Of a stretch of 64,000 nucleotides of DNA, positions 22,429-40,034 are shown one piece after another (position 1 is the first letter of the stretch; each line of letters opens with the position of its first letter). The notes under the pieces are model-generated. The model saw only the letters and a list, made by a program, of their open reading frames with translations. It ran no database searches and was not told the origin of the DNA. The stretch is from positions 1-64,000 of IMG/VR virus record IMGVR_UViG_3300025168_000034; one strand, given 5' to 3'. The stretch is from a virus. The translations under genes were made by a program, and so were the position numbers.

Positions 22429-22429
22429 G

Positions 22430-23254: not shown

Positions 23255-23256
23255 GT

Positions 23257-23793
23257 TTATTTAGTTTTACAATAATCAGCAAACTCTACTAGGATAGTAT
23301 TTACACCGTCAGTACGGTTCAGTGCTTTTTCATAAGCAGGCACTATGTCTTCTGGTTCAATCAACTCCATTACTTCGGTATTGTTAGTCATTGATCTGAA
23401 GGCTTCAGAGAAGTTTCCTTTGTGTTGACATTGAGGGTCAACTGGATGCTCGCTACCAACAGCAACTCTTATTATAACTCTTGGTGTGAGTTTGCCATTT
23501 GACATCTGCGAGAACTTATCTAAGTGATTGACAATTTGATCAGTTCCCATTAATAAAAAGTTCCACCTTGGATATGTGGATATAGGAATCATACCCTCTA
23601 TCGCCATTCCGTTTGCTAATCCGGATTGAAGATACTCAGCTACTGGTAACTCTAACCTTCTTGATTGATCAATATGTTTTAGGGAATCAAACAATCCAGT
23701 TCCTTCGTATTCAACAGCTTGCCCTATAAACATAGTAGCAGGATGCTCAGCCAATAAACTCATTGCTTTTTGTATTTCTGTATAGTATTTCAT
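23257..23793 (-). CDS. TPP-dependent E1 beta-like subunit (pyrimidine-binding domain only)
   Basis: ELPVAE, GLANGMA, DQIVNHL, QH motifs; lacks the C-terminal transketolase domain. Confidence 0.85.
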   Translation of the reverse strand: MKYYTEIQKAMSLLAEHPATMFIGQAVEYEGTGLFDSLKHIDQSRRLELPVAEYLQSGLANGMAIEGMIPISTYPRWNFLLMGTDQIVNHLDKFSQMSNGKLTPRVIIRVAVGSEHPVDPQCQHKGNFSEAFRSMTNNTEVMELIEPEDIVPAYEKALNRTDGVNTILVEFADYCKTK

Positions 23794-23796
23794 AAA

Positions 23797-24426
23797 CTAA
23801 AATTGTACTCTTAATCCAGCACCTGCGTGTGGATATTTGTTGTTATCGTATTGGTAATATATTAAATTCTTTTGTTCAACAATTCCTCCTTCATATTCCT
23901 TTTCTAAGAAGTATGGAGTAGTTCGTTGCCAAATTTCTGGAGTAGGTGTGCATACAGACTTTTTATTATCTTCAATTATAAAAGTAATTGGAAGATCTTT
24001 ATTCAAAGAGTATTTGTAGGCTTCATGAAAATGTCCAGTCTCTGCACTCATGTCACCAACCCAACACCAAACTCTATTCTTTTTCTTTTGTAACTTTATA
24101 GCTAATGCTATGCCAGCTGCGATTGAAGGGATCCCACCAACAATCGAACTGCATATGAATTTATATTCCGGTAGATTGGCTACCATAGACTTGCCATCTC
24201 TAATATTAGATTCTAGCACTTCAGGCGGTATGCCTTTAAGTAGTCCTTGATAATGATTTCGCCAAGTACAACACACCCAATCGTTTTCAATATCTATTTT
24301 TTTGAATATCTCTAAGATTTGATCTTCATTACCGTGATAAAGATGTATGGGTGCAGAAATTTCACCACTATTAAAAGCATCTCCTATTCTTTTTTCAAAT
24401 GCTATTAGTTCCTTTTTGTCTATCAT
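23797..24426 (-). CDS. TPP-dependent E1 alpha-like subunit (short)
   Basis: PIHLYHGNE, TWRNHY, SIVGG; TPP motif GDM...EDN. Confidence 0.85.
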   Translation of the reverse strand: MIDKKELIAFEKRIGDAFNSGEISAPIHLYHGNEDQILEIFKKIDIENDWVCCTWRNHYQGLLKGIPPEVLESNIRDGKSMVANLPEYKFICSSIVGGIPSIAAGIALAIKLQKKKNRVWCWVGDMSAETGHFHEAYKYSLNKDLPITFIIEDNKKSVCTPTPEIWQRTTPYFLEKEYEGGIVEQKNLIYYQYDNNKYPHAGAGLRVQF

Positions 24427-24496
24427 ATCCTAACCTTATCTTTTGTTTTAATACCCTCACCGATTAAGGTGTCTATCGTATACTCTAAGCCTCTTT

Positions 24497-25459
24497 TTAC
24501 CATATAAACTTGTGTTTGTAATACTCTACTATACTCTTTATTTCCCATTTAAACAACTTTCTCGGCTTCCAACCGAGTGATCTAAGTTTAGAATCATCTA
24601 ACGAGTATCGCACATCTTGACCTGGTCTGCTGTAAGAGTAATCTATATATTTATTCTCCTTCTTTCCATCGGAAATATCAACACCCATAGAATCAAAAAC
24701 GCTACGTACTGTATCGAAGTTTGTTTGCTCAAACCCACCAGCTATATTATATATCTCACCAATCGTTCCTTTTTCAATCAATGCAATAACAGCTTCTGCT
24801 GTATCGTCTGCGTGTAACCAGTTCCTATAAGGCTTTCCATAATTATGTAGAGGCACTTTGCGACCGAGATTAGCTAGCTTGACAGTTTTAGGAATCAATT
24901 TCTCAACATACTGACCTATGCCATAGTTGTTGGTTGGTCTCAAAATCATATAAGGAATCTTGTGCGTACGACCCCAAGCTGTTATTAACATATCAGCAGC
25001 TGCTTTTGTGGCAGAGTATGGATTACTTGGTTTAAGAAGAGCGTCTTCTGTATGACTACCTTCATCAATATCACCATAAACCTCATCTGTACTAAAGTGT
25101 ATCAGTACTGGTTTCTTATCCTGCTCACCTCTATGATTCTTAATTAATTCTAAAAGGTTGTGTACTCCATCGATATTTGATTTTACAAACTCACTGCTAC
25201 TTGCTATGCTGTTACCAACATGTGTTTCAGCAGCTGTGTTGATTACATAATCACAATCATACAGAAAGTATAGGTCGTTTATATCACAATCTACAAATGA
25301 AAAGTTAGGATCTTTTTTAAACTCTTTAAGTATTGTTTTGTTTGCTGCGTAAGTCATCTTATCAACTCCCTTGACATACCATCCCTTCTCTAAACACTTA
25401 CGTGTAACATAAGATCCTATAAATCCTAAACATCCAGTTACGTATACTATTTTTTTCAT
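24497..25459 (-). CDS. rmlB: dTDP-glucose 4,6-dehydratase
   Basis: GCLGFIG, DKMTYA, AAETHV, STDEVYG, PYSATKAA, NNYG, RPGQDVRY. Confidence 0.9.
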   Translation of the reverse strand: MKKIVYVTGCLGFIGSYVTRKCLEKGWYVKGVDKMTYAANKTILKEFKKDPNFSFVDCDINDLYFLYDCDYVINTAAETHVGNSIASSSEFVKSNIDGVHNLLELIKNHRGEQDKKPVLIHFSTDEVYGDIDEGSHTEDALLKPSNPYSATKAAADMLITAWGRTHKIPYMILRPTNNYGIGQYVEKLIPKTVKLANLGRKVPLHNYGKPYRNWLHADDTAEAVIALIEKGTIGEIYNIAGGFEQTNFDTVRSVFDSMGVDISDGKKENKYIDYSYSRPGQDVRYSLDDSKLRSLGWKPRKLFKWEIKSIVEYYKHKFIW

Positions 25460-25461
25460 AA

Positions 25462-26442
25462 TTATCCTACTCTATATTTTTTTAACCAATACTCTATCAT
25501 TTCATCTAACATTGTTTCAAATGTATAGCTGTGTTTCCAACCCAACTCTTTCTCTGCTTTTGAGCAATCACCCTTTAAGAATCGTAACTCTTCTGATCTA
25601 TAATATTTCTCATCCTGAGTGACATGCTCATTCCAATCCAAATCTAATTTACCAAATACATACTCAACTAAATCTTTTACTGTGTGAGATACTCCAGTTG
25701 AGCATACAAAGTCGTCTGGATGGTTGTGTTGAAGCATTAGCCACATTGCATGCACATAATCCTTTGCATGTCCCCAATCTCTACTAGCATCCAAGTTTCC
25801 AAGTGCTAATTGGTTTGTTAATCCTAGTTTGATTCTAACGGCTTCCTTTACCACTTTGTTAGTTACAAAGTTTGTACCACGTCTTGGTGATTCGTGATTA
25901 AATAATATTCCGTTTGATATGAATAATCCGTAAGCATTTCTATAGTTTCTGCATATGTTATAACCAAACACCTTCGCACAACCGTATGGTGATACTGGAT
26001 TAAGAGGTGTTGTTTCTCTTTGATATCCATCATCATCTATATTGTTGCCAAACATCTCTGAACTACTAGCTTGATACATTTTTGCTTCTGGACATGTTAA
26101 GCGAATCGCTTCTAATAAGTTTAGTGTTCCCATTGCAATAGAATCTGTTGTATATATTGGTTGGTCAAAACTAATCTTTACATGCGATTGTGCAGCAAGG
26201 TTGTATATCTCATCAGGTTTACACTTCTGTAATACACGTATAAGTGATGACATATCTGTCATGTCGGCATACTCTAAGTTAATTTGTTTGAATAACTTGT
26301 CTGGAATACGAGCTGTTTGATTTTCTGATACAGAGTTGCGTTTTAGTATTCCCCACACCTCATAACCCTTCTCTACCAATAATTCTGTCAGATAGGATCC
26401 GTCTTGCCCATTAATTCCAGTTATTAACGCTACTTTACTCAT
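25462..26442 (-). CDS. gmd: GDP-mannose 4,6-dehydratase
   Basis: ITGINGQDGSYL, NLAAQSHV, YQASSSE, SPYGCAK, FNHESPRRG, RDWGHA. Confidence 0.95.
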   Translation of the reverse strand: MSKVALITGINGQDGSYLTELLVEKGYEVWGILKRNSVSENQTARIPDKLFKQINLEYADMTDMSSLIRVLQKCKPDEIYNLAAQSHVKISFDQPIYTTDSIAMGTLNLLEAIRLTCPEAKMYQASSSEMFGNNIDDDGYQRETTPLNPVSPYGCAKVFGYNICRNYRNAYGLFISNGILFNHESPRRGTNFVTNKVVKEAVRIKLGLTNQLALGNLDASRDWGHAKDYVHAMWLMLQHNHPDDFVCSTGVSHTVKDLVEYVFGKLDLDWNEHVTQDEKYYRSEELRFLKGDCSKAEKELGWKHSYTFETMLDEMIEYWLKKYRVG

Positions 26443-27589
26443 ATTTGTTTATTATGTCTATTATTAAATTCATGTCTTTCTTTGTAAGATCTTGATGGTT
26501 AGGAATATAAAACCCTTGTGCTTCTAGTAATTCACAGTTTGGTAAAAATGGCTTCCAATGTTTGTTCATCCACATTGGTTTATTTGCCATGTTGCCTGCA
26601 ATCAATGGTCTTACTTCAACATCTGCAGCTAATAAGTCTCTGATAATATCATCTCGACGAGAATGTACAATTGGTATTGCAAAACTAGAAACATAGTCTC
26701 CAGGCTTTTCTTCTAACTCGAGATAGTTAGCTTTCAGTTTTTCTTTGTAGTATTCAAAGTTATTGTTACGTTGTCGTGCATAACGATCTAACTTATCTAT
26801 AGCTCGCAATCCTATAAATGCTTGGAGGTCTGTAGATCTCAAGTTCATCCCTGGAACATAGAAATTATATAGAGCATCAAAATCAGTACATCCATGCTGT
26901 TCTCTCAACTTCTTCTGTTTTTCTCTTGGTAAATCTCGATCCCATCCATGACTTCTCATCATTAATAACAAATGATAAAAATCTTCATCATCTGTATTTA
27001 TAAAGCCGCCTTCAATTGTTGATAGATGATGACCAAAATACATTGAGAAAAAGGATGCAAGTCCAAACGATCCTAAATGCTGTTGTTGGTACTTAGATCC
27101 CATACTCTCACAAACATCCTCTAATAGAATTACACCATATTTAGCACACAACTTTGTTATCTCTAACATATTAGGGACTAACCCTAGTGGTGACACTAAA
27201 ATAAATGTAGCAGGATTTTCACGTCGAAATATTGCTTCTAACGATTCTAAATCACACGACAAATCACTTAAATTACAATCACACATTGTGACATCGTAAC
27301 CTAACAACATAGGTGAACTTACATCCGTAGCCCAACTCAACGCAGGCACTACTATTTTATTGTTTTTTAGCTTACCTGATTCTTTTAATGCTGCTAATGT
27401 TAATAAGATAGAAGAAGATCCAGAATTAACAAATACTGAATATTTTGTTCCTATTTTTTTTGCCCATTTTTCTTCCAACTGTTTGGTTAATTCACCTTTA
27501 GTAAGTCTTGGTATCGGGTCTTGCTGTAACCATTCGACAAGTGCATTGATGTCTTGTCTATCTATTGTATCGCTAACTAATTTTATCAT
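26435..27589 (-). CDS. colD: ColD-like PLP-dependent GDP-4-keto-6-deoxymannose 3-dehydratase (DegT family)
   Basis: VNSGSS, EDVCES; FSMYFGHHLSTIEGG with His in place of the Schiff-base Lys; RSHGWDR; sits between gmd and fcl-like genes. Confidence 0.8.
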   Translation of the reverse strand: MIKLVSDTIDRQDINALVEWLQQDPIPRLTKGELTKQLEEKWAKKIGTKYSVFVNSGSSSILLTLAALKESGKLKNNKIVVPALSWATDVSSPMLLGYDVTMCDCNLSDLSCDLESLEAIFRRENPATFILVSPLGLVPNMLEITKLCAKYGVILLEDVCESMGSKYQQQHLGSFGLASFFSMYFGHHLSTIEGGFINTDDEDFYHLLLMMRSHGWDRDLPREKQKKLREQHGCTDFDALYNFYVPGMNLRSTDLQAFIGLRAIDKLDRYARQRNNNFEYYKEKLKANYLELEEKPGDYVSSFAIPIVHSRRDDIIRDLLAADVEVRPLIAGNMANKPMWMNKHWKPFLPNCELLEAQGFYIPNHQDLTKKDMNLIIDIINKYE

Positions 27590-28463
27590 ATACTTTTTTT
27601 ATACCTTCTTCGTATGGAGTAAATTCAAATTCTGGAAATAATGATAACATCTTATCTATGCTAACATCTTTTCTGTATTGACCGTCAAGCTCTGGCTTAT
27701 CGTACTTAATATAGTAATTTTTACCCAAAGAAGCTAAAGCTTTTTCAGCTAATTCATGAATTGATTGGTTCTCTGGATAAGCTATGTTGAAGTTTTCAGT
27801 TATATCATTTTCAATGGTCAACTTAATAATCCTAGCTAGATCTCCTGCATACATGAATTGACGAAGTGGTCTACCAGTTCCTAGCAAATTCAATTGGCTA
27901 TCACTTGTCTTGATCTTTTTTAAGAGTGCAGTAATGAAATGCATCTTCTTATCGTTTTCAAAATTATCATACTCACTATATAGATTGCATGGTGTGATGT
28001 AGTTATACTTTGTATCATATTGCTTGTTGTATGCTTTAATCTGCACCGCTAGAGCTCTTTTGGCATATCCATAACTAAAATTAGTTTCTGCTGGAGGTCC
28101 TGAGAATAAGTCCTTTTCTTGCATCGGGTATGATTGCATTTTGTCTGGATAGATGCATGTGCTTAATATTCCTACAAATCTTTTGACACTATACTCGTGA
28201 CACACCTTAACAATATTAGTATTCATCAATACATTATCGTCAAAATATTCTGCAGGCTTTGCTATGTTATCTTGAATACCACCAACCTTAGCAGCTAAAT
28301 GAACAACTACATCAGGTGTGTATGAGGATATCAACCATCGAACCTTTCCAATATCTGTAAGATCACAATCCTTACTACCAACGTATATTGCATCAGGAAT
28401 CACTTCTTTGAGATGCTTACCTACTGTACTCGTACCGCCGGTCACTAATATTCTTTTATTCAT
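27573..28463 (-). CDS. fcl: GDP-L-fucose/GDP-L-colitose synthase (epimerase-reductase)
   Basis: HLAAKVGGI, STCIYP, YGYAKR, PCNLY, GRPLRQF. Confidence 0.9.
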   Translation of the reverse strand: MNKRILVTGGTSTVGKHLKEVIPDAIYVGSKDCDLTDIGKVRWLISSYTPDVVVHLAAKVGGIQDNIAKPAEYFDDNVLMNTNIVKVCHEYSVKRFVGILSTCIYPDKMQSYPMQEKDLFSGPPAETNFSYGYAKRALAVQIKAYNKQYDTKYNYITPCNLYSEYDNFENDKKMHFITALLKKIKTSDSQLNLLGTGRPLRQFMYAGDLARIIKLTIENDITENFNIAYPENQSIHELAEKALASLGKNYYIKYDKPELDGQYRKDVSIDKMLSLFPEFEFTPYEEGIKKVYDKIS

Positions 28464-29467
28464 AGCGTTTTAAATTCGTTTAAATGTTGTTCAATCTCAA
28501 TATAATTTACTTCTTCTAAAAACATATTACCAGGTCTTTTTGTCAATACACAATTTAGTTTATCGCTAATATTTTTTTTGTCTTGCTTTAATGCATTAAT
28601 CATTTGATCAGTATTAGGTACTGACAAATCTTTATATATAGCTTTTAAGGTACTACCAATCTCAGTTAGATCTGCTTTATCTATATATCCTCTTTTGTAT
28701 GAAATATAATTTGCAATATCCATTCCCAAAGACACAGCTACACCATGTGGCACTTTGTTATTTGTACAAGACTCAATAGCATGTCCAAACGTATGGCCAT
28801 AGTTTAAGATTAATCTCTCCTTCTTATCAAACTCATCTAATTCAACAAAGCCACGTTTAATCTCCAAACACCTTGCGGTGAGTTTTTTTGGTGAGTTTTT
28901 ATTAAGTACAAAAAACAAATAATCTTCACGGCTCGATACTAAGAAGAAATGCAACATCTCACCTAATCCGGATAACATATCTGCTTCTGGTAGAGTGTCC
29001 AGAAAACTACTACACACAATAACTTTGTTAGGTGGATAAAAATTCCCTAGTTGATTTTTGTATGTATTAAAGTTTATTGAAGTCTTGCCTCCAATACAAC
29101 TATCACCTTGAGCTAGTAAGGTTGTTGGGTAGAATACCCAATCAACACCTCGAAATATTATTGAAGAGATAAACCCAACTGCATCTTGAGTAATCCCTCC
29201 GCCTACTGCAATCAGCTTATTTCTTTTGGTAAACGGTGTCTCAGGCACTTTATATATTAGATCGAGTATATCAGCAATCTTAGAAAACTCTTTAGTCTGC
29301 TCAGACACATCTAACAAGATATATGAACCTACATCACTCAGAGCTGATGTAAAAACATTTGAATCAACAATTATGATATCTCCTGGATTGTATACGGTTT
29401 TGATAGACTTGATGAAGTCTGTTTCAAATTGTACTTGGTAGTCTCGTATTGATGATTTTATATTCAT
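28460..29467 (-). CDS. 3-dehydroquinate-synthase-like sugar-phosphate cyclase
   Basis: GGGITQD, RGV, PTTLLAQGDSCIGGKT, KNQLG, LNYGHTFGHAIE, HGVAV. Confidence 0.9.
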   Translation of the reverse strand: MNIKSSIRDYQVQFETDFIKSIKTVYNPGDIIIVDSNVFTSALSDVGSYILLDVSEQTKEFSKIADILDLIYKVPETPFTKRNKLIAVGGGITQDAVGFISSIIFRGVDWVFYPTTLLAQGDSCIGGKTSINFNTYKNQLGNFYPPNKVIVCSSFLDTLPEADMLSGLGEMLHFFLVSSREDYLFFVLNKNSPKKLTARCLEIKRGFVELDEFDKKERLILNYGHTFGHAIESCTNNKVPHGVAVSLGMDIANYISYKRGYIDKADLTEIGSTLKAIYKDLSVPNTDQMINALKQDKKNISDKLNCVLTKRPGNMFLEEVNYIEIEQHLNEFKTL

Positions 29468-30138
29468 GTGATTGAAAAGCCTCCGTCTATTATAATATTT
29501 TGTCCAGTAATATATGTGTTTAGGTCGCTACATAAAAATATGACAGCATTAGCTATCTCTTGTGGAGTAGCCATTCTTTTCATAGGTACCTTAGATACTA
29601 ATTCTGATATCTGTGAGTCTGTTAGTATGCTTCTTGTCAGCTTTGTGTCTGTAAAGCCTGGTGAGATTGTATTGACTTGTATGTTGTACTCTGCTAACTC
29701 AGCTGCTAATGTCTTGGTCATTCCTATTAATGCAGATTTTGATGTAGTGTAGCATAACCTTTTTGCTACTGTTTTATCTCCCCATATTGAAGCTATGTTT
29801 ATTATCTTTCCTCCACCACTTCTTTTCATATGTTTAGATACGTGTTGTGATATTATGAATGGAGCTTTAACATTTACTTGCATAATAGTATCAAAGTCGT
29901 GCTCCTTAATGTCATGCAAGTTATCAATCTTATTAATGCCAGCACAGTTAATACAGATATCAATGTTAGGTAGATCAGCTAGTAGTTGTTTAATTGACGT
30001 GTCTGATCTAAGATCATAATCTTCTGATCCTATGCTCGTAACACTGCCTCGATTGCAGTTGAAGGAATTGACTATAGCTTTGCCAATCCCTCCACTGCCT
30101 CCAGTTACTAATATATTTTTATCTGCAAAGTTGAACAC
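29464..30138 (-). CDS. SDR family oxidoreductase (probable GTG start at 30138)
   Basis: VTGGSGGIG, INCAGI, NIAS, YTTSK, NTISPG, ITGQNIIIDGG. Confidence 0.9.
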   Translation of the reverse strand: MFNFADKNILVTGGSGGIGKAIVNSFNCNRGSVTSIGSEDYDLRSDTSIKQLLADLPNIDICINCAGINKIDNLHDIKEHDFDTIMQVNVKAPFIISQHVSKHMKRSGGGKIINIASIWGDKTVAKRLCYTTSKSALIGMTKTLAAELAEYNIQVNTISPGFTDTKLTRSILTDSQISELVSKVPMKRMATPQEIANAVIFLCSDLNTYITGQNIIIDGGFSIT

Positions 30139-30749
30139 TATTTTAGTGGGTTTCTTGCTAATGGTTGAGATGTACCCTTCCTTACTACCTCTTCTTTTAT
30201 AGAAGGACACTCAGCACCACATGCGTGAATAAGATCGTAGAATAATATTAGCGAAAGAACCTCTACAGTGTGAAAGTATTTACAATCTAAAACCACATTG
30301 TTAATTTTATCTCCTAATACACCTCTATCTTGCCCAGCTATCATTGCTGTCTTGTATCCATTCTTCTCAGCCCAATGACAACAAGACACTACATTCTTTG
30401 AACCGCCAGAACATGATAAGGCTACAATCATAGCGTCATCCTTCATCTTTCCAGTCTTTCTTTGTAGCTCAAGCCAACTCAAAAAGAGATTGTTATATCC
30501 ATAATCATTCGCGATGCTTGTCATTAAGCATTGACTCTCAAGCGTTGAGATGCTTTTTTGGATACCTGCCTTTGCAAACAAACGAGTACAATCGTCAGCG
30601 GCATGGTTAGCAACAGCCCACAACCCTCCATTTGCAACAAGGTATATGTCACTACTCGAAGCAAAGTCTTTTTCAAACTTCTTCCATTGCTTTGTGATTA
30701 ATGTTGCTTCTAACTTTTCTTCTATGTTTTCAAAATCAATATTTGCCAT
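30138..30749 (-). CDS. SIS-domain sugar-phosphate isomerase (GmhA-like)
   Basis: ANGGLWAVANH, TSIANDYG, LSCSGGSKNV. Confidence 0.85.
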   Translation of the reverse strand: MANIDFENIEEKLEATLITKQWKKFEKDFASSSDIYLVANGGLWAVANHAADDCTRLFAKAGIQKSISTLESQCLMTSIANDYGYNNLFLSWLELQRKTGKMKDDAMIVALSCSGGSKNVVSCCHWAEKNGYKTAMIAGQDRGVLGDKINNVVLDCKYFHTVEVLSLILFYDLIHACGAECPSIKEEVVRKGTSQPLARNPLK

Positions 30750-30797
30750 TTGTTTTCTTTTTATTTGTAATATACTTATTTTTTATCATTATTCCTA

Positions 30798-31961
30798 CTA
30801 TAAACTCCTTCTTATTAAAGATAATGCATCTCTAATTGTTCCCCATGTAATATTCAAATTCGGTCTTAATCTAACAGACATCTCTCCAGTTGGATTACAT
30901 ATCATACCATTCTCATACAGCTTCTTAACAAAGCTATCTCTGTATATTTTTCTGTTGAAGTCAAACGCCAACAATAAACCTATTTGTCTCACATTTGTTA
31001 TTTGAGGCATCTCTCTTAATCCATCAGCTAATAGGTTCCCCATTGTTGTAGCATTATCTAAAAGGTTGTCTTTTTCTATTGCTTTGATAATATACTTACA
31101 TCTAATCATGTCTAATAAGTCTCCATCAAATGTGACTGATAATCGCTTTGGTACTTCAAAAACCTTATTGTGTGTGTTTTTCACCATTATTCCTGATACT
31201 TGTGATTTCTTACCAAAAGCAATAATGTCAGGCTCTATACCTAAATGATCGCAATACCACACCTTACCAGATGCTCCAAAGCCAGTTTGAACTTCATCAA
31301 AAATTAATGGAATATCTTTTTCTGTACACAACTCTCTTAGCTGGAGAAGTTGGTGTTGTGGTAAATAATTATCACCATACGTAGATTGTATTGGTTCAAT
31401 GATAATTCCATGTATGCGTGATGTGTTTCTCCATGGGCTACGAATGTGTTTGATTGCTTGCTTTATAGAATCAACTTGAGGCCATGCTTGTGCGCCAGGT
31501 AAACTTCCTTGTCTCACATCTACTCCTTGGAATCTTGTAGTAAGTATGTTTCCTACAGAATTGATACCATGAAAGCTGTTCTTAATTGAAAGTATATATC
31601 CTTTGGGGTTAGGTCCTTTGTGCCACATAGCTGCTTTAACAGCTGCTTCGTTGGCTAATGCTCCTGTGCATGTAAAAGCGTAATTTGAGTAACCTTCTCG
31701 AGATGTAAAGTTTTTAAAGTGTTCATAGAAGGACTCGTATTCATCAGAAAGCATTTCACAGTTTACGATTTTAAGCTTTGATACTCTCTTCACCTCCTCT
31801 TCAAACGACTTATCGAATACTGGATGGTTATATCCTATTGGAAGAGATGAGTACATACCCATGAAGTCGAGGTAGTATTTGTTTGTGGTTTTATCAAACA
31901 CATAGCTACCTTTGCTTTTGTCAAAGTCAATCTTAATATTAAATGCGCTTGTTTTACTCAT
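30798..31961 (-). CDS. class III PLP aminotransferase (lysine 6-transaminase-like)
   Basis: YLDF, GYNHP, TGALANEAAVK, SFHG, IIEPIQ, FDEVQTGFG, DIIAFGKK. Confidence 0.9.
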   Translation of the reverse strand: MSKTSAFNIKIDFDKSKGSYVFDKTTNKYYLDFMGMYSSLPIGYNHPVFDKSFEEEVKRVSKLKIVNCEMLSDEYESFYEHFKNFTSREGYSNYAFTCTGALANEAAVKAAMWHKGPNPKGYILSIKNSFHGINSVGNILTTRFQGVDVRQGSLPGAQAWPQVDSIKQAIKHIRSPWRNTSRIHGIIIEPIQSTYGDNYLPQHQLLQLRELCTEKDIPLIFDEVQTGFGASGKVWYCDHLGIEPDIIAFGKKSQVSGIMVKNTHNKVFEVPKRLSVTFDGDLLDMIRCKYIIKAIEKDNLLDNATTMGNLLADGLREMPQITNVRQIGLLLAFDFNRKIYRDSFVKKLYENGMICNPTGEMSVRLRPNLNITWGTIRDALSLIRRSL

Positions 31962-33060
31962 ATATGTGATCTACGTCATCTCTACTAACTGCTAATCTTA
32001 TTGCTTGTTCTGATCCTACAGCTGTGATCTTGTGTTTTTTATTTCGCTCTATGAAAACTATATCTCCTTTCTTAACAACCATAGTATCTCCTTCCACAAA
32101 CCATTCCCACTCTCCTTTTATGATGTACCACCACTCATCCCAATCATTATGATAATGTAATCGATTTCCTTCACCTGGCATCTGTCCAATTAAGGTAGCT
32201 CTGTTAGATTTTGAGTTTATTACTGTGTGTGACCAAGACTCATCATCCGGATTATTACCTATGATACTCTGTACTTTTGTGACTTCTTTATTGTAATCGT
32301 GTAGGTTATTATTAACAACACCGTCTTGGGTTAGTACACGTTCTACATTGTGATCATAGACCTTTCCTGGTTTGTAATATTGAGGATCTTTTGGCTTTGC
32401 TGCTAGAATCGATTCAGCTAGCAGAAAATCATCCTCCTCGTCTATGTCGACTGTAGCATACCCATCTAACTCAAAGAATCCTATATTGCCATCACCTCCA
32501 TGATATCCGCAACCATACTTCTCCATATTTTTTTTATAATTTTCATATGTCCAAGACATTAAAGAGCAGGCATATGCATAGACTGGTTCTAGTAATTGGC
32601 TTGGTGGTGATGGTTTTTTTTGATCAAAGTTGATTGGTTGATTATCATACACTGATTCTATTTTGACTTTTTTGGTAGATACTAGTGTTGTATATTGCTT
32701 AGCTTGATTTACAAAATCCTTAACTTGCGACGAAGTGATGAAAGGTGATGTTGCAAGTATCTGTATTAGAGTATCTCCTTCTACACTATTCATAAAGTCT
32801 AATGTGAAATCGTCATTTGTTGCTTCATCTGTAGATAGATGGGCTGGTCTTTTGTAGAACTTCACACCATACTCCTCAGCTATCTCTGCAAAAATATCTG
32901 ACTCTGAATTGATATATATTTCATCAAACACATTTGCTTCTTTAGCAGCTTGTATTGCATAACTAACTAGAGGAACATTACCTAATAGTCTTAGATTCTT
33001 ATTGGGTATCCGTTTACTTCCCAGTCTAACGGGGATCATTGCTATAACTTTTTTATTCAT
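31954..33060 (-). CDS. NeuA/KdsB-type cytidylyltransferase fused to a cupin domain
   Basis: IPVRLGSKRIPNKN, ATSPF, VDIDEEDD; C-terminal HYH...DEWWY...H cupin. Confidence 0.9.
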   Translation of the reverse strand: MNKKVIAMIPVRLGSKRIPNKNLRLLGNVPLVSYAIQAAKEANVFDEIYINSESDIFAEIAEEYGVKFYKRPAHLSTDEATNDDFTLDFMNSVEGDTLIQILATSPFITSSQVKDFVNQAKQYTTLVSTKKVKIESVYDNQPINFDQKKPSPPSQLLEPVYAYACSLMSWTYENYKKNMEKYGCGYHGGDGNIGFFELDGYATVDIDEEDDFLLAESILAAKPKDPQYYKPGKVYDHNVERVLTQDGVVNNNLHDYNKEVTKVQSIIGNNPDDESWSHTVINSKSNRATLIGQMPGEGNRLHYHNDWDEWWYIIKGEWEWFVEGDTMVVKKGDIVFIERNKKHKITAVGSEQAIRLAVSRDDVDHIYE

Positions 33061-34778
33061 TATTTGTTGTTTATAAACTCATTCATTAAATAATCATCTA
33101 ACGTGAGTGTTCCGTAATGCTCATCTACCATTTTTCTAAAATAATCAATCTGTGGTTGTTGATGATGTATATCCATTCGTAGCTGTTCTACAGAGGGTTC
33201 TTTATTTTCTGTAGAGCTGAAATTGCCTATTGCTGAAGCTGCATCGTGATATGTATCATTGTACACTTTTCCAAAAGTATTCATATTGAAAAAAGTCATA
33301 CCGGTGATGAATAGCTCTTTGACATCATAATTTAACAAGGTTATGACACCCATCAACCCTGTGTTAGCAGTTGTTCCGATTTCATTAAAGCATTTGAATA
33401 AATAACCATCAGATACATCGTGCCAATCCACTTTTAGATCTTGCATAAAATCATATATCGATTGGATATTCCACATTAACACCATTGGACACACAACATA
33501 CTTTAGAGATTTTACAAACTCCACATTATTAGACATTGCATTCTGCTTATAGTGATTCAGGCAATTCATAACTATATCCGTTCGTTGTCCATAGTCTTCC
33601 CAATCACTCTCTGGCATATCATATGCTTGATTAACCCTCACAACTACATCATAAGAATCTATTAATTTACCTAAACCCTTTCCTTTAAGGTGAGGAGATG
33701 GACAGACATATGCTACCCGCTTTCCTTTTACCAACTCGTTAAGCTTTTCATCGAGCTTATAATCTCGAAAGCTATTTACAAAAGGTCCTCGAGAGCCTAA
33801 ATCAAAAAGCTGATCAGCTGGGGTTGGTGTAGATGATTGCCATTCCGGTGGATTAATGCTAAGAGGTATGTTTGTTATATTGTTCAAAGTGTTTCCCCAC
33901 CAATTATCATTATCAATTAAACTCACTCTACACTCGATAAGCTCTTTGTGGTGTATCGGTGGTATCTCCCACGGAAAGATAGGAAATCGACCTATACTCT
34001 CTCCGTTGAACCATCTTAGATCTGTAGTAAAGGACTCTACATTAATCTTATTGGTATCAATAACTTCGCCTGATAATAATAAGCTGTTTAGATACTCAAC
34101 ACTATACACTTCTTCGTACCTATTCAATGAGTTGTTAGTGTGTATTTGTTTTACTACTTCTGTGTGGTGAAACAAATTATATGTATAGTCTTGGAATATA
34201 GGAGATTTTGAACCTGCTATCTCTAGCTCGACTGGTGTGTTGATCTTGTTGTCAGTTTGTATTAATTCTAATACATCTTTCTTTCTGTGAATAACACTAC
34301 TCGCATTAAAGGGATATTTTAGTGCCAACTCTTCGATAGAGCTAGATCCTTTGGTACTTTTGTTAATAGTGTAATAAGCTTCTTCTTGCTTATCCCACCA
34401 CTGCTTATTAAATAAAGTAGGGTCAAGTCCAAAACAATACTTACCAGCGCTATTAAGTGTTTTTAAAGACTTATCACACTGATCAAGGTTTAATGATTTA
34501 AAGTATATAGTATCATCTACCTCAAGCATTACATTGTCTGATTGTATTTCATTACTTAATATTGCTGTAAGTGTTTGTTGGAAGCCATAAACACTCTCGT
34601 CTACAAAAATAACATTGTTAAATATGTTGTTAAGTTTTTGATACCCTTCAAGATACTGTTTATTAGAGTACCCAAACTGGACGTATATATTGTCTACTCC
34701 AGTCACATACCTCTCTATCGTCTCAAGTGATGTGTGTAACTGAAAAGCTCTATCTTTTGAAAAAATTAAAATATCCAT
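33060..34778 (-). CDS. bifunctional glycosyltransferase: GT-A domain plus GT29 (sialyltransferase)-like domain
   Basis: FSKDRAFQL...VDD; sialylmotif-L-like GKRVAYV...LGKLIDSYDVVVRVN...DYGQRTD and motif-S-like NTGLMGV...LFITGMTF. Confidence 0.75.
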   Translation of the reverse strand: MDILIFSKDRAFQLHTSLETIERYVTGVDNIYVQFGYSNKQYLEGYQKLNNIFNNVIFVDESVYGFQQTLTAILSNEIQSDNVMLEVDDTIYFKSLNLDQCDKSLKTLNSAGKYCFGLDPTLFNKQWWDKQEEAYYTINKSTKGSSSIEELALKYPFNASSVIHRKKDVLELIQTDNKINTPVELEIAGSKSPIFQDYTYNLFHHTEVVKQIHTNNSLNRYEEVYSVEYLNSLLLSGEVIDTNKINVESFTTDLRWFNGESIGRFPIFPWEIPPIHHKELIECRVSLIDNDNWWGNTLNNITNIPLSINPPEWQSSTPTPADQLFDLGSRGPFVNSFRDYKLDEKLNELVKGKRVAYVCPSPHLKGKGLGKLIDSYDVVVRVNQAYDMPESDWEDYGQRTDIVMNCLNHYKQNAMSNNVEFVKSLKYVVCPMVLMWNIQSIYDFMQDLKVDWHDVSDGYLFKCFNEIGTTANTGLMGVITLLNYDVKELFITGMTFFNMNTFGKVYNDTYHDAASAIGNFSSTENKEPSVEQLRMDIHHQQPQIDYFRKMVDEHYGTLTLDDYLMNEFINNK

Positions 34779-36433
34779 TAAACTAAATCTTTTAAGTACT
34801 TATTGTAAAATTTATCATTATCCTCATACCAATCTAAAGCTCTTTCGTAATTTTCTTGAATTGCAGCTTTTTTGGATTCATAAATAGGAGTTTTTTCAAG
34901 GTCTTGGATAATAGTCACCAATTCTTTAGTTGTGTCGAAGGTTATAATACCATCTGGATTAAACCACTGTTGTATATTTGGACAGCCATGATAGATAGGA
35001 ATAACTCCAGCTAACATACAATCAAGTAGCTTTTCTGTAAAGTAGTTTTTCATCTTAGCATTCTCCATTGCTATTGAAAATTCATAGTCCTTTAATCCTT
35101 CTAATTTAGAAGCTATGGGATTAATATCTCGTCCAAAAGCATCAACATTGAGCCTCTGTTTCTGCATCTCTGCTAGACATTCTAATCTAAACTCATGCCC
35201 CTTTACCATACTTTTCTTGGAGGTAATGAAGGATGTCTTTTTAGATTTTTTATAAACCTGAAACTGAGTTGTATCTAGTTCTATTGGTAAAAGATTCCAT
35301 TGTGAAATCTCTGTGATTGGTTTAAATTTAAAGTTTGGTAAATTGTGTAGCGACTCATGCCACCCAAGCACCCTATCAAACTTTCCGTATTCTGTTTGTA
35401 TTGTATCATACAAAAGCTCTTGATTAAACAGGTGTGGACCTTCAGCTATAACTGCTACAATAGGCTTATCCTCATCAACTTCAATTGATCCATTCAAGTA
35501 TTTTAGAATACTATCATCTTGCAAAACTGTCAAATCAAACTCACCTTTTGACAGATTGTATGTGTAGGAAAAGTCTTTAGGAATTGTATGTCGCTCTCTA
35601 TAATCTCCAAAAGCATTTACTTGTGGCAACTTTTCGCCACTCAACTCTTCTCTAACAGCTACTCTCTTGAATTTTTTTCTATTTCGTATTTCTATTTCAT
35701 ACTTTTCATTCTCTTTCGAATCTCTAAAAGAGCCATCCTTTAAAGGCCTTACTCGGTCAGGATCGTTATTAAACATTACAGTAGGATATTGTAGATTCAC
35801 TATCTTCTCTGAAGGTACCATCTCCATCATAGAGAATTGGAGCTGTAGATCAATTGCATGTTTATATATCTCATTATCGATGTTTGAGATTGCATTTTCA
35901 ACTTTAAATTGCTTATGTACAAACCATCTAAACGAGTGTAGGTGACCTGCTCTCCACATGTCCTTTCTATATAGAGCATGTTTATGCACAAACGGATCAT
36001 AATCGCTATTTTGTGGATTAGGCATGACAATCTCTGTGCCACCATTCCATACACGCATACCACCGTAGGTTAGCCAACAATCGGTTTCATTATATGTTTG
36101 GTTGAGTTGTTCTAATACTGTTGGAGTAGCAAACCAATCATCACCACAAAGCTCTACTAGGATTTCATTTTCATCCCTACCATCCATAAACTCATAAGGG
36201 TGTTTAATGTAGTTTGTTGGAGAGTCTAAGTTTTTTTTATTGTTAATAATGTGAAATCTACTATCATTACCAACTAAATCAGTTACTATCTGTAGGGTGT
36301 TGTCTGTAGATGCATCATTAACATATATTACCTCATAATTAGTATATGTTTGTTCTAAAATACTTTCCAAGTGAGTTTCCGCCCACTCCTCATTGTTGTA
36401 TGAACAACATAAGATTATAAATTTATTTTTCAT
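34778..36433 (-). CDS. bifunctional glycosyltransferase: GT2 plus GT10 (alpha-1,3-fucosyltransferase)-like domain
   Basis: SYNNE, VNDASTD, GDDW; C-terminal KLEGLKDYEFSIAMEN...YFTEKLLD...VIPIYHG. Confidence 0.85.
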   Translation of the reverse strand: MKNKFIILCCSYNNEEWAETHLESILEQTYTNYEVIYVNDASTDNTLQIVTDLVGNDSRFHIINNKKNLDSPTNYIKHPYEFMDGRDENEILVELCGDDWFATPTVLEQLNQTYNETDCWLTYGGMRVWNGGTEIVMPNPQNSDYDPFVHKHALYRKDMWRAGHLHSFRWFVHKQFKVENAISNIDNEIYKHAIDLQLQFSMMEMVPSEKIVNLQYPTVMFNNDPDRVRPLKDGSFRDSKENEKYEIEIRNRKKFKRVAVREELSGEKLPQVNAFGDYRERHTIPKDFSYTYNLSKGEFDLTVLQDDSILKYLNGSIEVDEDKPIVAVIAEGPHLFNQELLYDTIQTEYGKFDRVLGWHESLHNLPNFKFKPITEISQWNLLPIELDTTQFQVYKKSKKTSFITSKKSMVKGHEFRLECLAEMQKQRLNVDAFGRDINPIASKLEGLKDYEFSIAMENAKMKNYFTEKLLDCMLAGVIPIYHGCPNIQQWFNPDGIITFDTTKELVTIIQDLEKTPIYESKKAAIQENYERALDWYEDNDKFYNKYLKDLV

Positions 36434-37301
36434 ATGACTTAATTGTCTTTTTTATACCTGATTGTATATCGTGTTTAGCGCACCATCCAGTGAGTTGTAG
36501 TTTACTATTATCACCACATAGATGGTTTGTGTAGGAATTCTTTCTGTCCTTGGTAGCGTCAAAAGTAATAGTGTGTTCGAGTCCTAAATAGTCATCGTCA
36601 AACTCTTGTTTTATTGTATTGACTACATCCCTAACCACATACTCCTTTCCGGAACATATGTTGAATATACCGGTATGTTTACCTGATAATAGTTGATCAA
36701 CAGCGCTCGTAAAGTCATCTATATACAAGTAATCTGCTACTGAATTACAAGAATTGAGAGTAAGGTTTTGGCGGTCAATGCATGCTTGAACTGTCATAGG
36801 GATTAACCTACTCTGTACGTCACCTGGTCCGTATACATAACAAGGACGCAGCCACAACCATTTAAAATTATTGACCTCACACAAGGTTCTTGTAAACAGT
36901 TTAAGAATATTCTTAGATGCACCATAGTAGTTGTTAGCATACTCCGGGTCTTCTTCTGTTATGCTTGTTTTGTTGATTCCATACTCTGCAAACGATCCTA
37001 CACCTACAAAGTGTAAATTCTTTAGTTGAGAGAATACTCTACCTAATTCGATAGCTATATTAATGTTGCTAAATTGCTCGTAACTATTGACACCGTTAAA
37101 GTTGTTACCATCAGACCATCCATTGTATATAAAGATGTCAGGTTGATATTCTAAAATCTCTTCTCCAACTGTAGTTAGGTTGTTATGCCTTATACTGACA
37201 GATCGTATGTCATATTTTTTTGATAAATGGATTGCTAGACTCTTTCCTAAGAATCCACTAACCCCACTAATCATTATTTTAAGTTTATCTGACTTCTCCA
37301 T
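36423..37301 (-). CDS. NAD-dependent nucleotide-sugar epimerase/4-reductase
   Basis: SGVSGFLG, GSFAEYG, YGASK, VYGPGD, DYLYIDD. Confidence 0.9.
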   Translation of the reverse strand: MEKSDKLKIMISGVSGFLGKSLAIHLSKKYDIRSVSIRHNNLTTVGEEILEYQPDIFIYNGWSDGNNFNGVNSYEQFSNINIAIELGRVFSQLKNLHFVGVGSFAEYGINKTSITEEDPEYANNYYGASKNILKLFTRTLCEVNNFKWLWLRPCYVYGPGDVQSRLIPMTVQACIDRQNLTLNSCNSVADYLYIDDFTSAVDQLLSGKHTGIFNICSGKEYVVRDVVNTIKQEFDDDYLGLEHTITFDATKDRKNSYTNHLCGDNSKLQLTGWCAKHDIQSGIKKTIKSYEK

Positions 37302-38251
37302 TCCTTCAAATCGTAGTGTTTTTTATAATTTCTTTTTGCTTTGATTACACAATCTGTGTAAAAATCGTAATCATTGCTTAGCCTTTGTGCTAACTTTCTA
37401 GCTGAATCAACGTCTTCTACATCAACACACAAGTCTGGATGACACAATCTTTGTGTATCAACGTGTTTGTTACCTATACAAGGTATGCCAAAGTATGCAC
37501 AATTTAGGCTAAATGTGCCTGCTGCAATAGTTGGCATAAGATGTACAGCATACTTGAATGTTGATAACTCTTTCATCCAATCGATCCAGCTCAATCTAGG
37601 TAGATGTTGTAGGTTTGGTACATATCCTTCACCGTCACGTTTTGCATGAGACTCTTGAGCCCAGATTGGTGCTTTGAATTCATCTGCAACAACGTAGCTT
37701 TGAAAGCCTCCATACCATCTTGCAAAGTTTCCTCCAATAATCACCTTGTTTTCTGTCTTAGGCTCTATATTACTAATAAGCTTTTCGATCATTAATGTAG
37801 GTATTGTTTGTACCTTTTGACCTGGCACTAACCCTTTATAAAATCTCGTATCATATTCGTTGTGAGCATATATTGTATCGACATCAGTTAGCATATTGTA
37901 GAAATTAAACTGATCATGCACTTCTAATTCTGTGAACATCCAAGCCGGTCCTTCTTGTATATAATGGATTTGCTTGTTGTTCTTTTTCAAGACCTCGAGC
38001 CAGTTTGAGTTTAAAAGCTCAGAGTGTGGATTAGGTGAGTTAGCTATTTTTGCTCCAACTGCATTTAGATTAAGCTGTCCTTTAGGGAATATAACAAACA
38101 CATGATCACAATCTTTAATACTTGCATACTCATATATGTTTGTGTGTGTTGCGTCTAATGCATGCATCCATGCAAACTCCGTTCTCATATTAGTATGATC
38201 ACTAGCAATCTTACCACTAAACCCCATCTCTGTAACGAACGCTATTTTCAT
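37274..38251 (-). CDS. glycosyltransferase (GT-B-like)
   Basis: AGTFSLNCAYFGIPCIG C-terminal GT-B pattern; glycan-cluster context. Confidence 0.65.
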   Translation of the reverse strand: MKIAFVTEMGFSGKIASDHTNMRTEFAWMHALDATHTNIYEYASIKDCDHVFVIFPKGQLNLNAVGAKIANSPNPHSELLNSNWLEVLKKNNKQIHYIQEGPAWMFTELEVHDQFNFYNMLTDVDTIYAHNEYDTRFYKGLVPGQKVQTIPTLMIEKLISNIEPKTENKVIIGGNFARWYGGFQSYVVADEFKAPIWAQESHAKRDGEGYVPNLQHLPRLSWIDWMKELSTFKYAVHLMPTIAAGTFSLNCAYFGIPCIGNKHVDTQRLCHPDLCVDVEDVDSARKLAQRLSNDYDFYTDCVIKAKRNYKKHYDLKEWRSQINLK

Positions 38252-39405
38252 TTTGCAAAAAACTCTTTTATTTTATCACACACATAATCAACATCGTCAA
38301 CTGTCATACCGTGATGAGCACCTAACAAGAATCCATTAGCCATAATGAGGTCTGAATTTGTAAAATCTTGCAAATACTCTCTATAGATTGGATGTCTAGT
38401 AACATTACCAGCAAAGGTAACTCTAGTCTGTATATTGTTATCTTCTAAGAATGTTAACAACTCAAGACGTCTATCACACTGTAAAGGTACTGCTAGCCAG
38501 TTTGGTTTTATACTATCGTCTGGCAATATAAGCTCTTTAACATCTTTAAGGTTTTCTATATATCTTTCAACATTATCTCTCCTTATCTTTTCAAACTTTT
38601 TAAACCTTTCGAGTTGTACTAATCCAAAAGCTGCGTTCATCTCTGAGCATTTCATGTTGTATCCAAGTACGTCATATAGAAATTTGTGATCGTAAGCAAT
38701 ACCATCTACTTCGTGATTAAAGCGATCTGACATTAACTCTGAGTTGTCTCCCATTCTTCCCCAATCACGATATTGTAGAGCTCTGTTTACATGCTTCTTG
38801 TCGTTAAACATAACCATACCTCCTTGACCTCCAGCTGTAATGACATGACTAGCATAAAAGCTGGTCGTAGACACATCCGATTCTTCTGTGTATGTAATTG
38901 TATCTGCTGAATCTTCTATGACTTTAATGTCATATCTTCTTAGAGCTTGTAGTTTTTGCTTTAACTTAACCCAATCAGGTTTGTTTCCTATTAAATTTGG
39001 AACCATAATAGCTTTAACTTTAGATTCCGTATCCTTAGATACAATGTCAATAATATCTTCCACTGTTGGCACATAGGATTGCAATCCTACATCACAAAAA
39101 ACTGGCTCGAAGCCTAACTGTATAATTGGAGCTAATGTTGTTGAAAACGTACATGCTGGTGTTATCACCTGACATCCTTTAGGTAAGTCTAATGCTGCTA
39201 ATGCTAACAGACATGCTGATGATCCTGAGTTCACAAACACTCCATATTTCTTACCAAAACGCTTAGCTATTTGCTCTTCAAACTCAATAGACTTAGGTCC
39301 AAATCCAGCTAGCCATCCATCACGGAGACACTGTTCTACTGCTTTAATTTCTTCCTCTCCATAAGATTCAAACTTGTTAGGAGCGTACCATACTTTCTTT
39401 CTCAT
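38248..39405 (-). CDS. DegT-family PLP enzyme, RfbH/DdhC-like 3-dehydratase type
   Basis: VNSGSSA, FSTT, IEDSAD, TSFYASHVIT (His at the Lys position), RDWGR, YDHKF, GYNMK. Confidence 0.8.
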   Translation of the reverse strand: MRKKVWYAPNKFESYGEEEIKAVEQCLRDGWLAGFGPKSIEFEEQIAKRFGKKYGVFVNSGSSACLLALAALDLPKGCQVITPACTFSTTLAPIIQLGFEPVFCDVGLQSYVPTVEDIIDIVSKDTESKVKAIMVPNLIGNKPDWVKLKQKLQALRRYDIKVIEDSADTITYTEESDVSTTSFYASHVITAGGQGGMVMFNDKKHVNRALQYRDWGRMGDNSELMSDRFNHEVDGIAYDHKFLYDVLGYNMKCSEMNAAFGLVQLERFKKFEKIRRDNVERYIENLKDVKELILPDDSIKPNWLAVPLQCDRRLELLTFLEDNNIQTRVTFAGNVTRHPIYREYLQDFTNSDLIMANGFLLGAHHGMTVDDVDYVCDKIKEFFAK

Positions 39406-40034
39406 ATTGTGTTGTAAAATTTATTTTGACGTTCTTGTCGTTGTATCGACTTAGGATGATGTAAGCAATACTCTGGATTGCCTGGCATATGTCCAAATTT
39501 TTTGTAGCCAACCAATCTTTCATGAACCGGCTTTATCCATTTAATGTCTGGTGAGTTTTTGTATAAGCGCATTTGATGATCAGGAAAATTAACCCACCCT
39601 CGTTCACTCACCTGCCATCCCCACTTTGCTATATGCTCTTGTGTTAATCCGCTGACTGTGTTAATTCGTGACAACCAGTACGCTTCAACATCTGGGTTGT
39701 CTGATATTACATAAGGGATTGCTTCCATCAAGTAGTCGTCTGGATACTCGTCTGCATCTAATTGGAGTATCCAATCTCCAGAACAGAGACTGTTTAAGTA
39801 ATTCTTGTGTTTAGCAAAGTTTTTGTTTAGAGGATGATATGCTCGAATCACATTATCATCGATACACTCTTCAGCGAATGCTTCTACATAATCCTTTATC
39901 TCTTGTGTGTGATTTGTTTCATCTACTAAAATAACGATCTCATCTTCAGGTGACTTCCATTTCAATAAATACTTGGTGAGGTTTTTTATTTCTTCAATCT
40001 CGTTACATACGGGGACAGCATAACTAATTTTCAT
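39402..40034 (-). CDS. glycosyltransferase GT2
   Basis: VCNE, NFAKHKN, WILQLDADE, PDHQMR, VHE. Confidence 0.9.
   Translation of the reverse strand: MKISYAVPVCNEIEEIKNLTKYLLKWKSPEDEIVILVDETNHTQEIKDYVEAFAEECIDDNVIRAYHPLNKNFAKHKNYLNSLCSGDWILQLDADEYPDDYLMEAIPYVISDNPDVEAYWLSRINTVSGLTQEHIAKWGWQVSERGWVNFPDHQMRLYKNSPDIKWIKPVHERLVGYKKFGHMPGNPEYCLHHPKSIQRQERQNKFYNTI

Follow-up and report, generated by a model that had tools for sequence, protein, structure and literature searches.

The DNA considered here, called the window, is the first 64 kb (positions 1 to 64,000) of IMG/VR virus record IMGVR_UViG_3300025168_000034, the 165,609-bp genome of an uncultured marine phage with a CheckV completeness of 98%. 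Its genes lie on the minus strand throughout, and its GC content is ~36%. Our subject is a cassette of six genes at 28460-34778, which a preliminary description, made from the letters alone, had read as an uncharacterised pathway in which a cytidine monophosphate (CMP)-activated sugar or aminocyclitol is fed to a sialyltransferase-like domain. All six open reading frames proved to be real, with these boundaries and on the minus strand, and every domain call holds. They are listed below, with the 572-aa protein given in two parts:

28460..29467, minus strand: AroB-like enzyme (a dehydroquinate synthase-like protein, DHQSl), 335 aa; Pfam DHQ_synthase N- and C-terminal domains, NCBIfam TIGR04425
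29464..30138, minus strand: classical short-chain dehydrogenase/reductase (SDR), FabG/KduD-like, 224 aa; Pfam adh_short_C2, 174 bits
30138..30749, minus strand: divergent GmhA-like SIS-domain sugar-phosphate isomerase, 203 aa; NCBIfam gmhA, 50 bits, and PDB matches
30798..31961, minus strand: class III (omega-type) pyridoxal phosphate (PLP) aminotransferase, 387 aa; Pfam Aminotran_3, 216 bits
31954..33060, minus strand: NeuA-like cytidylyltransferase::cupin fusion (CMP::cupin below); Pfam CTP_transf_3, 83.3 bits, and Cupin_2, 52 bits
33060..33911, minus strand: C-terminal half of a 572-aa protein, GT29/GT42-like sialyltransferase-fold domain, residues 290-572; AlphaFold, Foldseek
33912..34778, minus strand: N-terminal half of the same protein, residues 1-289; only ~5 homologues share this region

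The cassette genes are translationally coupled, with overlaps of 1-8 nt and one pair separated by 48 nt. A second viral lineage, whose AroB-like protein is only ~40% identical, has all six families side by side, as have ~20 IMG/VR loci, and the grouping is therefore not due to chance; the neighbourhood analysis thus finds the contiguity in two viral lineages. Across the whole 165.6-kb genome no NeuB, KdsA/DAHP-synthase (PF00793; DAHP, 3-deoxy-D-arabino-heptulosonate 7-phosphate), HpcH aldolase or second AroB was found, so that the earlier statement that the window holds no NeuB or KdsA synthase extends to the entire phage genome. Maf-like, GFO/IDH/MocA and 2-hydroxyacid dehydrogenase genes were also searched for across the phage genome, and none was found.

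The AroB-like enzyme is where our reading departs most from the preliminary description. Of the NCBIfam models, TIGR04425 ('AroB-related putative sugar phosphate phospholyase (cyclizing)') fits it best, with 354.2 bits, below the curated cut-off of 400, while the aroB model TIGR01357 gives 231.9 bits, below its cut-off of 305. Elsewhere TIGR04425 scores reach 402 bits (locus L007) and 430-482 bits (bacterial members of the type A context described below), and the window protein is, judged from these scores, a divergent relative within the TIGR04425 clade. It was aligned with dehydroquinate synthase (DHQS, 5hvn), annotated AroB, two sedoheptulose-7-phosphate cyclases and one DOIS (2-deoxy-scyllo-inosose synthase), with the cyclases taken from plasmid records. 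Twelve of 13 DHQS active-site residues have their equivalents in the window protein (R130, D146, K152, N162, E194, K250, R264, N268, H271, H275, H287 and K356), and these 12 are invariant across 86 family members. The position of Lys197, which is Lys in every known type aligned, is His in the window protein, where HGE is also replaced by HGV; among the 86 members this position is Lys in 55 and His in 30, and the neighbours of the His197 subclade are only CMP-transferase, GFO, 2-hydroxyacid dehydrogenase and SIS contexts.

At the positions that discriminate between the cyclase types (K250, R264, N268, H275 and the DKK356 motif), the window protein is DHQS-type throughout. Sedoheptulose-7-phosphate cyclases carry M, K/E, D and P at the first four positions and have no DKK motif, while DOIS carries G and E at discriminating positions (Glu at N268, no Arg264). 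The fingerprints of EEVS (the synthase of 2-epi-5-epi-valiolone), DDGS (that of desmethyl-4-deoxygadusol), EVS (that of 2-epi-valiolone) and DOIS are not present in the window protein, and EEVS and DDGS structures in the PDB align with it over the N-terminal domain only. The residue alignment therefore classifies the active site as DHQS-type and not as EEVS or DOIS, and an aminocyclitol route from sedoheptulose 7-phosphate or glucose 6-phosphate is rejected on the fingerprint residues. The retained DHQS residues are said, from work by Carpenter and colleagues in 1998, to bind the carboxylate and the phosphate of DAHP. Because the residues are DHQS-type, K250 and R264 included, the predicted substrate of the AroB-like enzyme is a DAHP-like acid sugar phosphate and not a neutral heptulose or hexose phosphate. 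The chemistry of DHQS consists of a transient oxidation by NAD+ followed by beta-elimination of the phosphate, which leaves a deoxy keto group.

The second line of evidence comes from the genes that replace the AroB-like enzyme in related cassettes. In the pathway to 3-deoxy-D-manno-octulosonic acid (Kdo), KdsD is the isomerase, KdsA the synthase, KdsC the phosphatase of the haloacid dehalogenase (HAD) type and KdsB the CMP-Kdo synthetase, and Shewanella has a branch with KdnB and KdnA that leads to the 8-amino sugar Kdo8N. A search of IMG/VR that started from the CMP::cupin fusion gave 41 loci, 38 of them with the full-length fusion, and the partners present among these 38 were the SIS isomerase (35), the aminotransferase (33), the GT29-like protein (25), the SDR (23) and the AroB-like enzyme (19). 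When all 41 loci are considered, 22 have the AroB-like gene only, 12 have only a gene for a small HAD-like protein, none has both and seven have neither (Fisher p = 6e-6). This small protein (126-134 aa), found in loci that lack the AroB-like gene, has the HAD motifs DFDGV, S, K and DD; Pfam and PDB sequence searches with it gave no match, and its structural model (predicted local distance difference test, pLDDT, 78) matches only HAD sugar phosphatases, and these weakly (HisB-N, GmhB and a phage arabinose-1,5-bisphosphate phosphatase). Natural SIS::HAD-like fusions of ~325 aa also occur in three loci without the AroB-like gene (L114:15057-16034, L136:15047-16024 and L141:15798-16787).

The exchange can be followed in the sibling contigs L117 and L125, where the flanking genes are 97-100% identical and the SIS proteins 97.5% identical. 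In L125 a KdsC/KDN-9-P-phosphatase-like gene (KDN-9-P, the 9-phosphate of 2-keto-3-deoxynononic acid) lies beside the SIS gene and replaces the DHQSl and SDR genes of L117; the stretches that correspond are L125:12469-13597 and L117:14389-16760. At a distance of 4 kb, both contigs encode KdsA (309 bits against a cut-off of 242) and a KdsD-like isomerase, so that L125 has KdsA and KdsC and L117 has KdsA, while the window phage has neither. Because the AroB-like enzyme and the SDR are exchanged for a phosphatase in related cassettes, a phosphate-removing role on an acid sugar phosphate is indicated, and, as judged from gene content, the pair functionally substitutes for a phosphatase of sugar-acid phosphates. 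The CMP::cupin fusions (84% identical) and the aminotransferases (81%) of the two contigs have diverged more than the flanks and the SIS protein, and this suggests an order in which the swapped step would be preceded by the SIS isomerase and the synthase and followed by the aminotransferase and the CMP-transferase. The phosphatase exchange and the DHQS-type residues together speak against the conversion of a heptulose phosphate to a cyclitol or aminocyclitol by a DHQS-family cyclase here.

Both halves of the CMP::cupin fusion look active and are predicted to be so, because the nucleotide-binding and metal motifs are conserved. The cytidylyltransferase domain (~residues 1-220) scores 83.3 bits with CTP_transf_3 against a Pfam gathering threshold of 22.6, its best PDB matches are NeuA enzymes, and its N-terminal P-loop-like motif PxRxGSKxxxxKN is conserved as IPVRLGSKRIPNKN; the cupin (~residues 285-368) has an HxH...E...H metal motif. 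The nucleotide-binding motif and the full metal motif are kept in nine of nine aligned fusions. The domain stays below the equivalog cut-offs for PseF (91.8 bits against 205.7) and KdsB (models at 49 bits or less), and it is not assigned as a PseF, KdsB or NeuA equivalog.

For the 572-aa protein, the Pfam GT29 match is marginal (27.6 bits against a gathering threshold of 23) and covers the sialylmotif-L region only, while an AlphaFold model built from 28 sequences has a pLDDT of ~90 for residues 290-572. Foldseek gave 31 PDB matches at E <= 0.001, each of them either a GT29 enzyme from a mammal or Cst-I/II of Campylobacter (GT42), with TM-scores, normalised to target length, of 0.41-0.55. According to this model, residues 290-572 are a sialyltransferase domain of the GT-A variant fold (GT29/GT42-like); the family consensus has sialylmotif-L- and S-like stretches with a nearly invariant His538, and the C-terminal ~280 residues occur as stand-alone homologues of 284-360 aa in related contigs. 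The N-terminal half (residues 1-289) has no Pfam or PDB match and a pLDDT below 50. One GT29-like homologue, the metagenomic protein P0147 (595 aa), is annotated with NeuB and GT29 Pfam domains and would be a fusion of synthase and transferase. The CTP_transf_3 match and the AlphaFold and Foldseek results bear out the original proposal of an uncharacterised pathway in which a NeuA-like CMP-transferase feeds a sialyltransferase-fold domain.

The three remaining enzymes are less specific. The open frame of the SDR spans 29464-30210, but its real start is probably the GTG at 30138, which shares one base with the stop of the preceding gene and gives 224 aa; at its other end the gene overlaps that of DHQSl by 4 nt. 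The SIS protein is below the gmhA cut-off (TIGR00441, 50 bits against 209), although GmhA structures in the PDB match it at E = 2e-8 and its Ser-rich phosphate loop is kept. The aminotransferase is closest to lysine epsilon-aminotransferase in the PDB search and alignment and is below the cut-off for L-lysine 6-transaminase (TIGR03251, 267.6 bits against 520.8); the PLP lysine and the C-terminal Arg are retained, while Ile and Thr replace the substrate residues Arg170 and Glu243.

With moderate confidence, we propose that the module synthesises an amino, terminal-deoxy 3-deoxy-ulosonic acid, activates it with CMP and transfers it; the AroB-like enzyme would take the phosphate off an ulosonate phosphate made by the host, and the SDR would reduce what results. 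Since the phage encodes no synthase that condenses phosphoenolpyruvate, we infer that the phosphorylated keto-acid precursor (DAHP-like or Kdo-8-phosphate-like) would come from the host, possibly aided by the phage SIS isomerase. By DHQS chemistry the AroB-like enzyme would eliminate the terminal phosphate and yield a deoxy keto group, which the coupled SDR would reduce ahead of carbocyclisation or in its place. An amino group would then be installed by the cupin and the class III aminotransferase, the NeuA-like domain would form the CMP-sugar, and the GT29-like domain would add the sugar to a cytoplasmic glycan built by the neighbouring soluble glycosyltransferases, with virion proteins or a host envelope precursor as the putative site of acceptance. 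The product is probably a small sialic-acid- or Kdo-like sugar of seven or eight carbons. What the data show are the domain identities, the synteny, the DHQS-type residues and the phosphatase exchange, from which the substrate, the sequence of reactions, the product and the acceptor are inferred. From the preliminary description, the CMP-activated, sialic-acid-like amino sugar acid is thus retained as the probable product, while its derivation from a heptulose through a cyclitol is not.

Several points weigh against this proposal. The AroB-like protein stays under the curated TIGR04425 cut-off, a literature search returned no paper characterising the cassette or the AroB-like family, and the family is without biochemistry. 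The geometry of DHQS fits a seven-carbon pyranose such as DAHP better than Kdo-8-phosphate, yet the only synthase seen in the relatives is KdsA. Nor does the scheme account for the presence of an SDR alongside an aminotransferase, or give the SIS isomerase and the cupin definite roles. The small HAD-like protein resembles GmhB, so that the SIS and HAD-like proteins could belong to a heptose route. Finally, all DHQS catalytic residues are retained, and work by Bartlett and Knowles reportedly showed that the intermediate of DHQS cyclises spontaneously, which makes formation of a carbocycle the default unless the SDR intercepts the intermediate.

The surroundings of the cassette bear on the question of the acceptor. 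The cassette is embedded in a larger block:

21142..43624, minus strand: 22-gene soluble glycan block; Pfam, hydropathy scan

Nineteen of the 22 proteins match named families, among them GDP-mannose dehydratase, DegT-type enzymes, epimerases/reductases, a split thiamine diphosphate (ThDP) enzyme and, besides the GT29-like protein, GT2, GT2+GT10 and GT4-like transferases. The hydropathy scan predicts membrane segments in none of the 22, so that the block lacks a flippase, a polymerase and an initiating phosphoglycosyl transferase, which suggests glycosylation in the cytoplasm. Together, the GT29-like transferases and this soluble glycan factory point to glycosylation of virions or of the host surface by Bacteroidota phages. 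The region is flanked by phage genes (family A DNA polymerase, GroEL and nucleases), and Flavobacteriia are the likely host because the polymerase is 45.6% identical to its counterpart in Flavobacterium phage vB_FspM_immuto, the nearest cultured relative.

Some further features of this block and its surroundings were noted. The protein at 34778-36433 is a fusion of GT2 and GT10 (fucosyltransferase-like), and in the relative L014 (L014:2703-5939) a 1078-aa GT2+GT11+GT10 version directly precedes CMP::cupin, with the GT29-like gene absent there. The split minimal ThDP enzyme (23257-24426; an E1-alpha-like protein of 209 aa and a transketolase-pyr-like protein of 178 aa) lies amid nucleotide-diphosphate-sugar enzymes, is found also in L105 and L014, and may serve branched-sugar synthesis. 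Between an RfbH-like enzyme and an epimerase lies a conserved 325-aa protein (37274-38251), ~70% identical in relatives, for which Pfam and NCBIfam searches gave no match. The phage-encoded chaperonin GroEL is at 46873-48483 (phrog_5725, 551 bits). In related phages (L012:18016-21008, L014:20149-20999) a peptidoglycan-binding amidase follows the glycan block, as does a protein of >1000 aa with a C-terminal sorting domain of the type IX secretion system (Por_Secre_tail), which is a signal of a Bacteroidota host and a possible glycosylation target.

The strongest competitor of the proposed pathway, which we consider possible but rather unlikely, is a carbocyclic product. Here the full DHQS reaction would act on DAHP or an analogue, and the ring would be reduced or aminated and linked to CMP at its tertiary alpha-hydroxy-acid carbon, giving a carba-analogue of sialic acid that would serve as donor or as inhibitor of CMP-sugar transferases. 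The catalytic and binding residues of DHQS are retained (12 of 13, with His for Lys197), the enol-pyranose intermediate is said to cyclise by itself, and for a phage without a synthase host DAHP is the simplest substrate. Additionally, a 3-deoxy-ulosonic acid has an isostere in quinate, and the Schmidt group's synthetic CMP-quinic acid is reportedly a sialyltransferase inhibitor. However, a ring linked to CMP in this way cannot form an oxocarbenium ion, so that its transfer by an enzyme of the GT29-like kind would be chemically difficult; nevertheless, a gene of the sialyltransferase fold accompanies the cassette in 25 of 38 loci. In nearly identical contigs whose CMP-transferases are orthologous the pair is exchanged for a phosphatase, which implies that the two variants make similar products, and one ketone on a ring leaves no need for an SDR as well as an aminotransferase. 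A bolder form, in which the phage and many cassette-bearing bacteria make a DAHP-derived, CMP-linked, quinate-like amino acid ring as an unprecedented pseudo-glycosyl donor or a natural inhibitor of host CMP-sugar transferases, seems to us clearly unlikely.

It is also improbable that the cassette combines two unrelated routes, in which the SIS isomerase with a phosphatase or with DHQSl and SDR would make a neutral heptose or deoxy-heptose, while CMP::cupin and the aminotransferase would modify a Kdo or other ulosonic acid of the host. The GmhA-like SIS protein agrees with such a division, as do the HAD-like protein, whose best structural neighbours include GmhB and HisB-N, and the 19 of 41 CMP::cupin loci in which CMP::cupin, the aminotransferase and the SIS isomerase occur without DHQSl. 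A class III aminotransferase also suits a terminal aldehyde, as in Kdo8N synthesis by KdnA/KdnB. However, by chemical reasoning a DHQS-type elimination is infeasible on a heptopyranose 7-phosphate, and the carboxylate-binding K250 and R264 are invariant in the AroB-like family. Furthermore, no heptose kinase or heptose nucleotidyltransferase was identified in the glycan block (the 19 assigned proteins match other families), and the tight coupling of the six genes and their conserved order favour one pathway.

Another proposal, compatible with any of these products, is that the acceptor is phage DNA and that the sugar serves base hypermodification, and this we regard as very unlikely. There are phage DNA glycosyltransferases for which 5-hydroxymethylcytosine can serve as acceptor of Kdo and heptose (bioRxiv 10.1101/2023.12.21.572611), and Fig. 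2 of Burke et al. 2021 depicts a DHQS-like gene and a CTP transferase beside TET genes on metavirome contigs (PMC8256090). Against it, no C5-methyltransferase, TET/JBP or ThyA-like hydroxymethylase was found in the 98%-complete genome (the TET search had no positive control), and the GT2, GT10, GT4 and GT29-type transferases in the block are typical of oligosaccharide assembly. That the AroB-like enzyme is an auxiliary metabolic gene that raises the host's shikimate flux independently of its neighbours, or simply complements aroB, is extremely improbable: its DHQS-like active-site residues would allow it, but TIGR04425 outscores the aroB model (232 against a cut-off of 305), the gene overlaps the SDR by 4 nt within a run of six genes that overlap or lie close together, it is syntenic with the cassette in 22 viral loci and replaced by a phosphatase in others, no DAHP synthase was found in the genome, and the preliminary description noted no further shikimate genes in the window (later shikimate enzymes were not searched for).

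The AroB-like family extends well beyond these viral cassettes. Six metagenome contigs carry exact or near copies, and relatives of ~65% identity are numerous in marine metagenomes (TARA among them), where they sit on phage-like contigs that bear the same cassette. Among 50,697 deposited phage records none has the CMP::cupin fusion or the GT29-like protein, and the AroB-like clade is also absent from them, their AroB matches being ordinary host-type aroB of ~32% identity. A phage-type cassette with phage-like order and identity was also seen in L044 (labelled as a metagenome-assembled genome of Thaumarchaeota) and in L052 (a SAR86 single-cell genome), which may both be viral contigs mis-binned or co-sorted with cells.

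Bacterial homologues, 35-50% identical, were collected from 80 loci in many phyla; their neighbourhoods are glycan loci in which CTP_transf_3, Maf-like and polysialyltransferase-like genes occur, in keeping with the proposed pathway. In 71 of 79 bacterial loci an SDR gene lies within 7 kb of the AroB-like gene (median ~0.9 kb). Two contexts recur. Type A contains a 2-hydroxyacid dehydrogenase, GFO/IDH/MocA, SIS, SDR, the AroB-like enzyme, DUF386 and CTP_transf_3, to which some loci add lactonase, HpcH aldolase, Maf-like or polysialyltransferase-like genes; type B contains a YerE-like ThDP enzyme, SDR, the AroB-like enzyme, an FGGY kinase, a NeuB-like protein and a HAD protein. In type-B-like loci such as L048, L078 and L084 there is additionally an HMGL-like protein and no CTP_transf_3 within 7 kb, and this context may represent a different use of the same keto-acid product. 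The phage version has the aminotransferase and the cupin, and the GFO and 2-hydroxyacid dehydrogenase steps are absent genome-wide, so that the oxidative keto-acid route of type A bacteria (SIS-GFO-lactonase-2-hydroxyacid dehydrogenase) cannot operate here.

If the proposed pathway is true, the fold of a shikimate enzyme has been recruited as the phosphate-eliminating step of a sugar-acid biosynthesis, and sialic-acid-like sugars of the terminal-deoxy kind can be made by a nucleotide-independent, and common, route. Marine phages widely carry the cassette, as do bacteria of many phyla, and it would therefore mark a missing monosaccharide of environmental glycobiology. The natural swap between a phosphatase and the AroB-like enzyme with its SDR offers a clean paired system for biochemistry.

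Among known systems, virus-encoded glycosylation (giant-virus glycans, mycobacteriophage virions and phage DNA bearing Kdo or heptose) likewise uses soluble sugar-nucleotide enzymes and glycosyltransferases encoded by the virus, whereas CMP::cupin and the GT29-like protein are absent from deposited phages. The pathways to CMP-sialic, CMP-legionaminic and CMP-pseudaminic acid share with the cassette a NeuA-like cytidylyltransferase, the sialyltransferase fold and, for legionaminic and pseudaminic acid, the amino and terminal-deoxy pattern of the proposed product; unlike them, the cassette has no NeuB-type synthase and no feed from a UDP- or GDP-N-acetylhexosamine 4,6-dehydratase, and no N-acetyltransferase was seen in it. 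The Kdo pathway resembles the proposed scheme in its SIS isomerase, a phosphorylated 3-deoxy-ulosonate, removal of the phosphate and activation by CTP_transf_3, and the Kdo8N branch in an aminotransferase that adds the amino group. It differs in that the window phage has neither KdsA nor KdsC and carries a DHQS homologue and an SDR in the place of the phosphatase, while the isomerase of the cassette is GmhA-like and not KdsD-like, the cytidylyltransferase is NeuA-like and joined to a cupin, and the transferase is GT29-like and not WaaA/GT30. In aminoglycoside pathways DOIS is followed by an aminotransferase, and this and the other cyclases of secondary metabolism (EEVS, DDGS, EVS, DOIS and EboD) belong to the same superfamily as the AroB-like enzyme but differ from it in the fingerprint residues. 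The closest comparison is with AroB (EC 4.2.3.4) and TIGR04425, which have the same fold and 12 of 13 active-site residues in common with the window protein; the latter differs in that it scores under both cut-offs, lies in a glycan context with an SDR as partner, and is interchangeable with a phosphatase.

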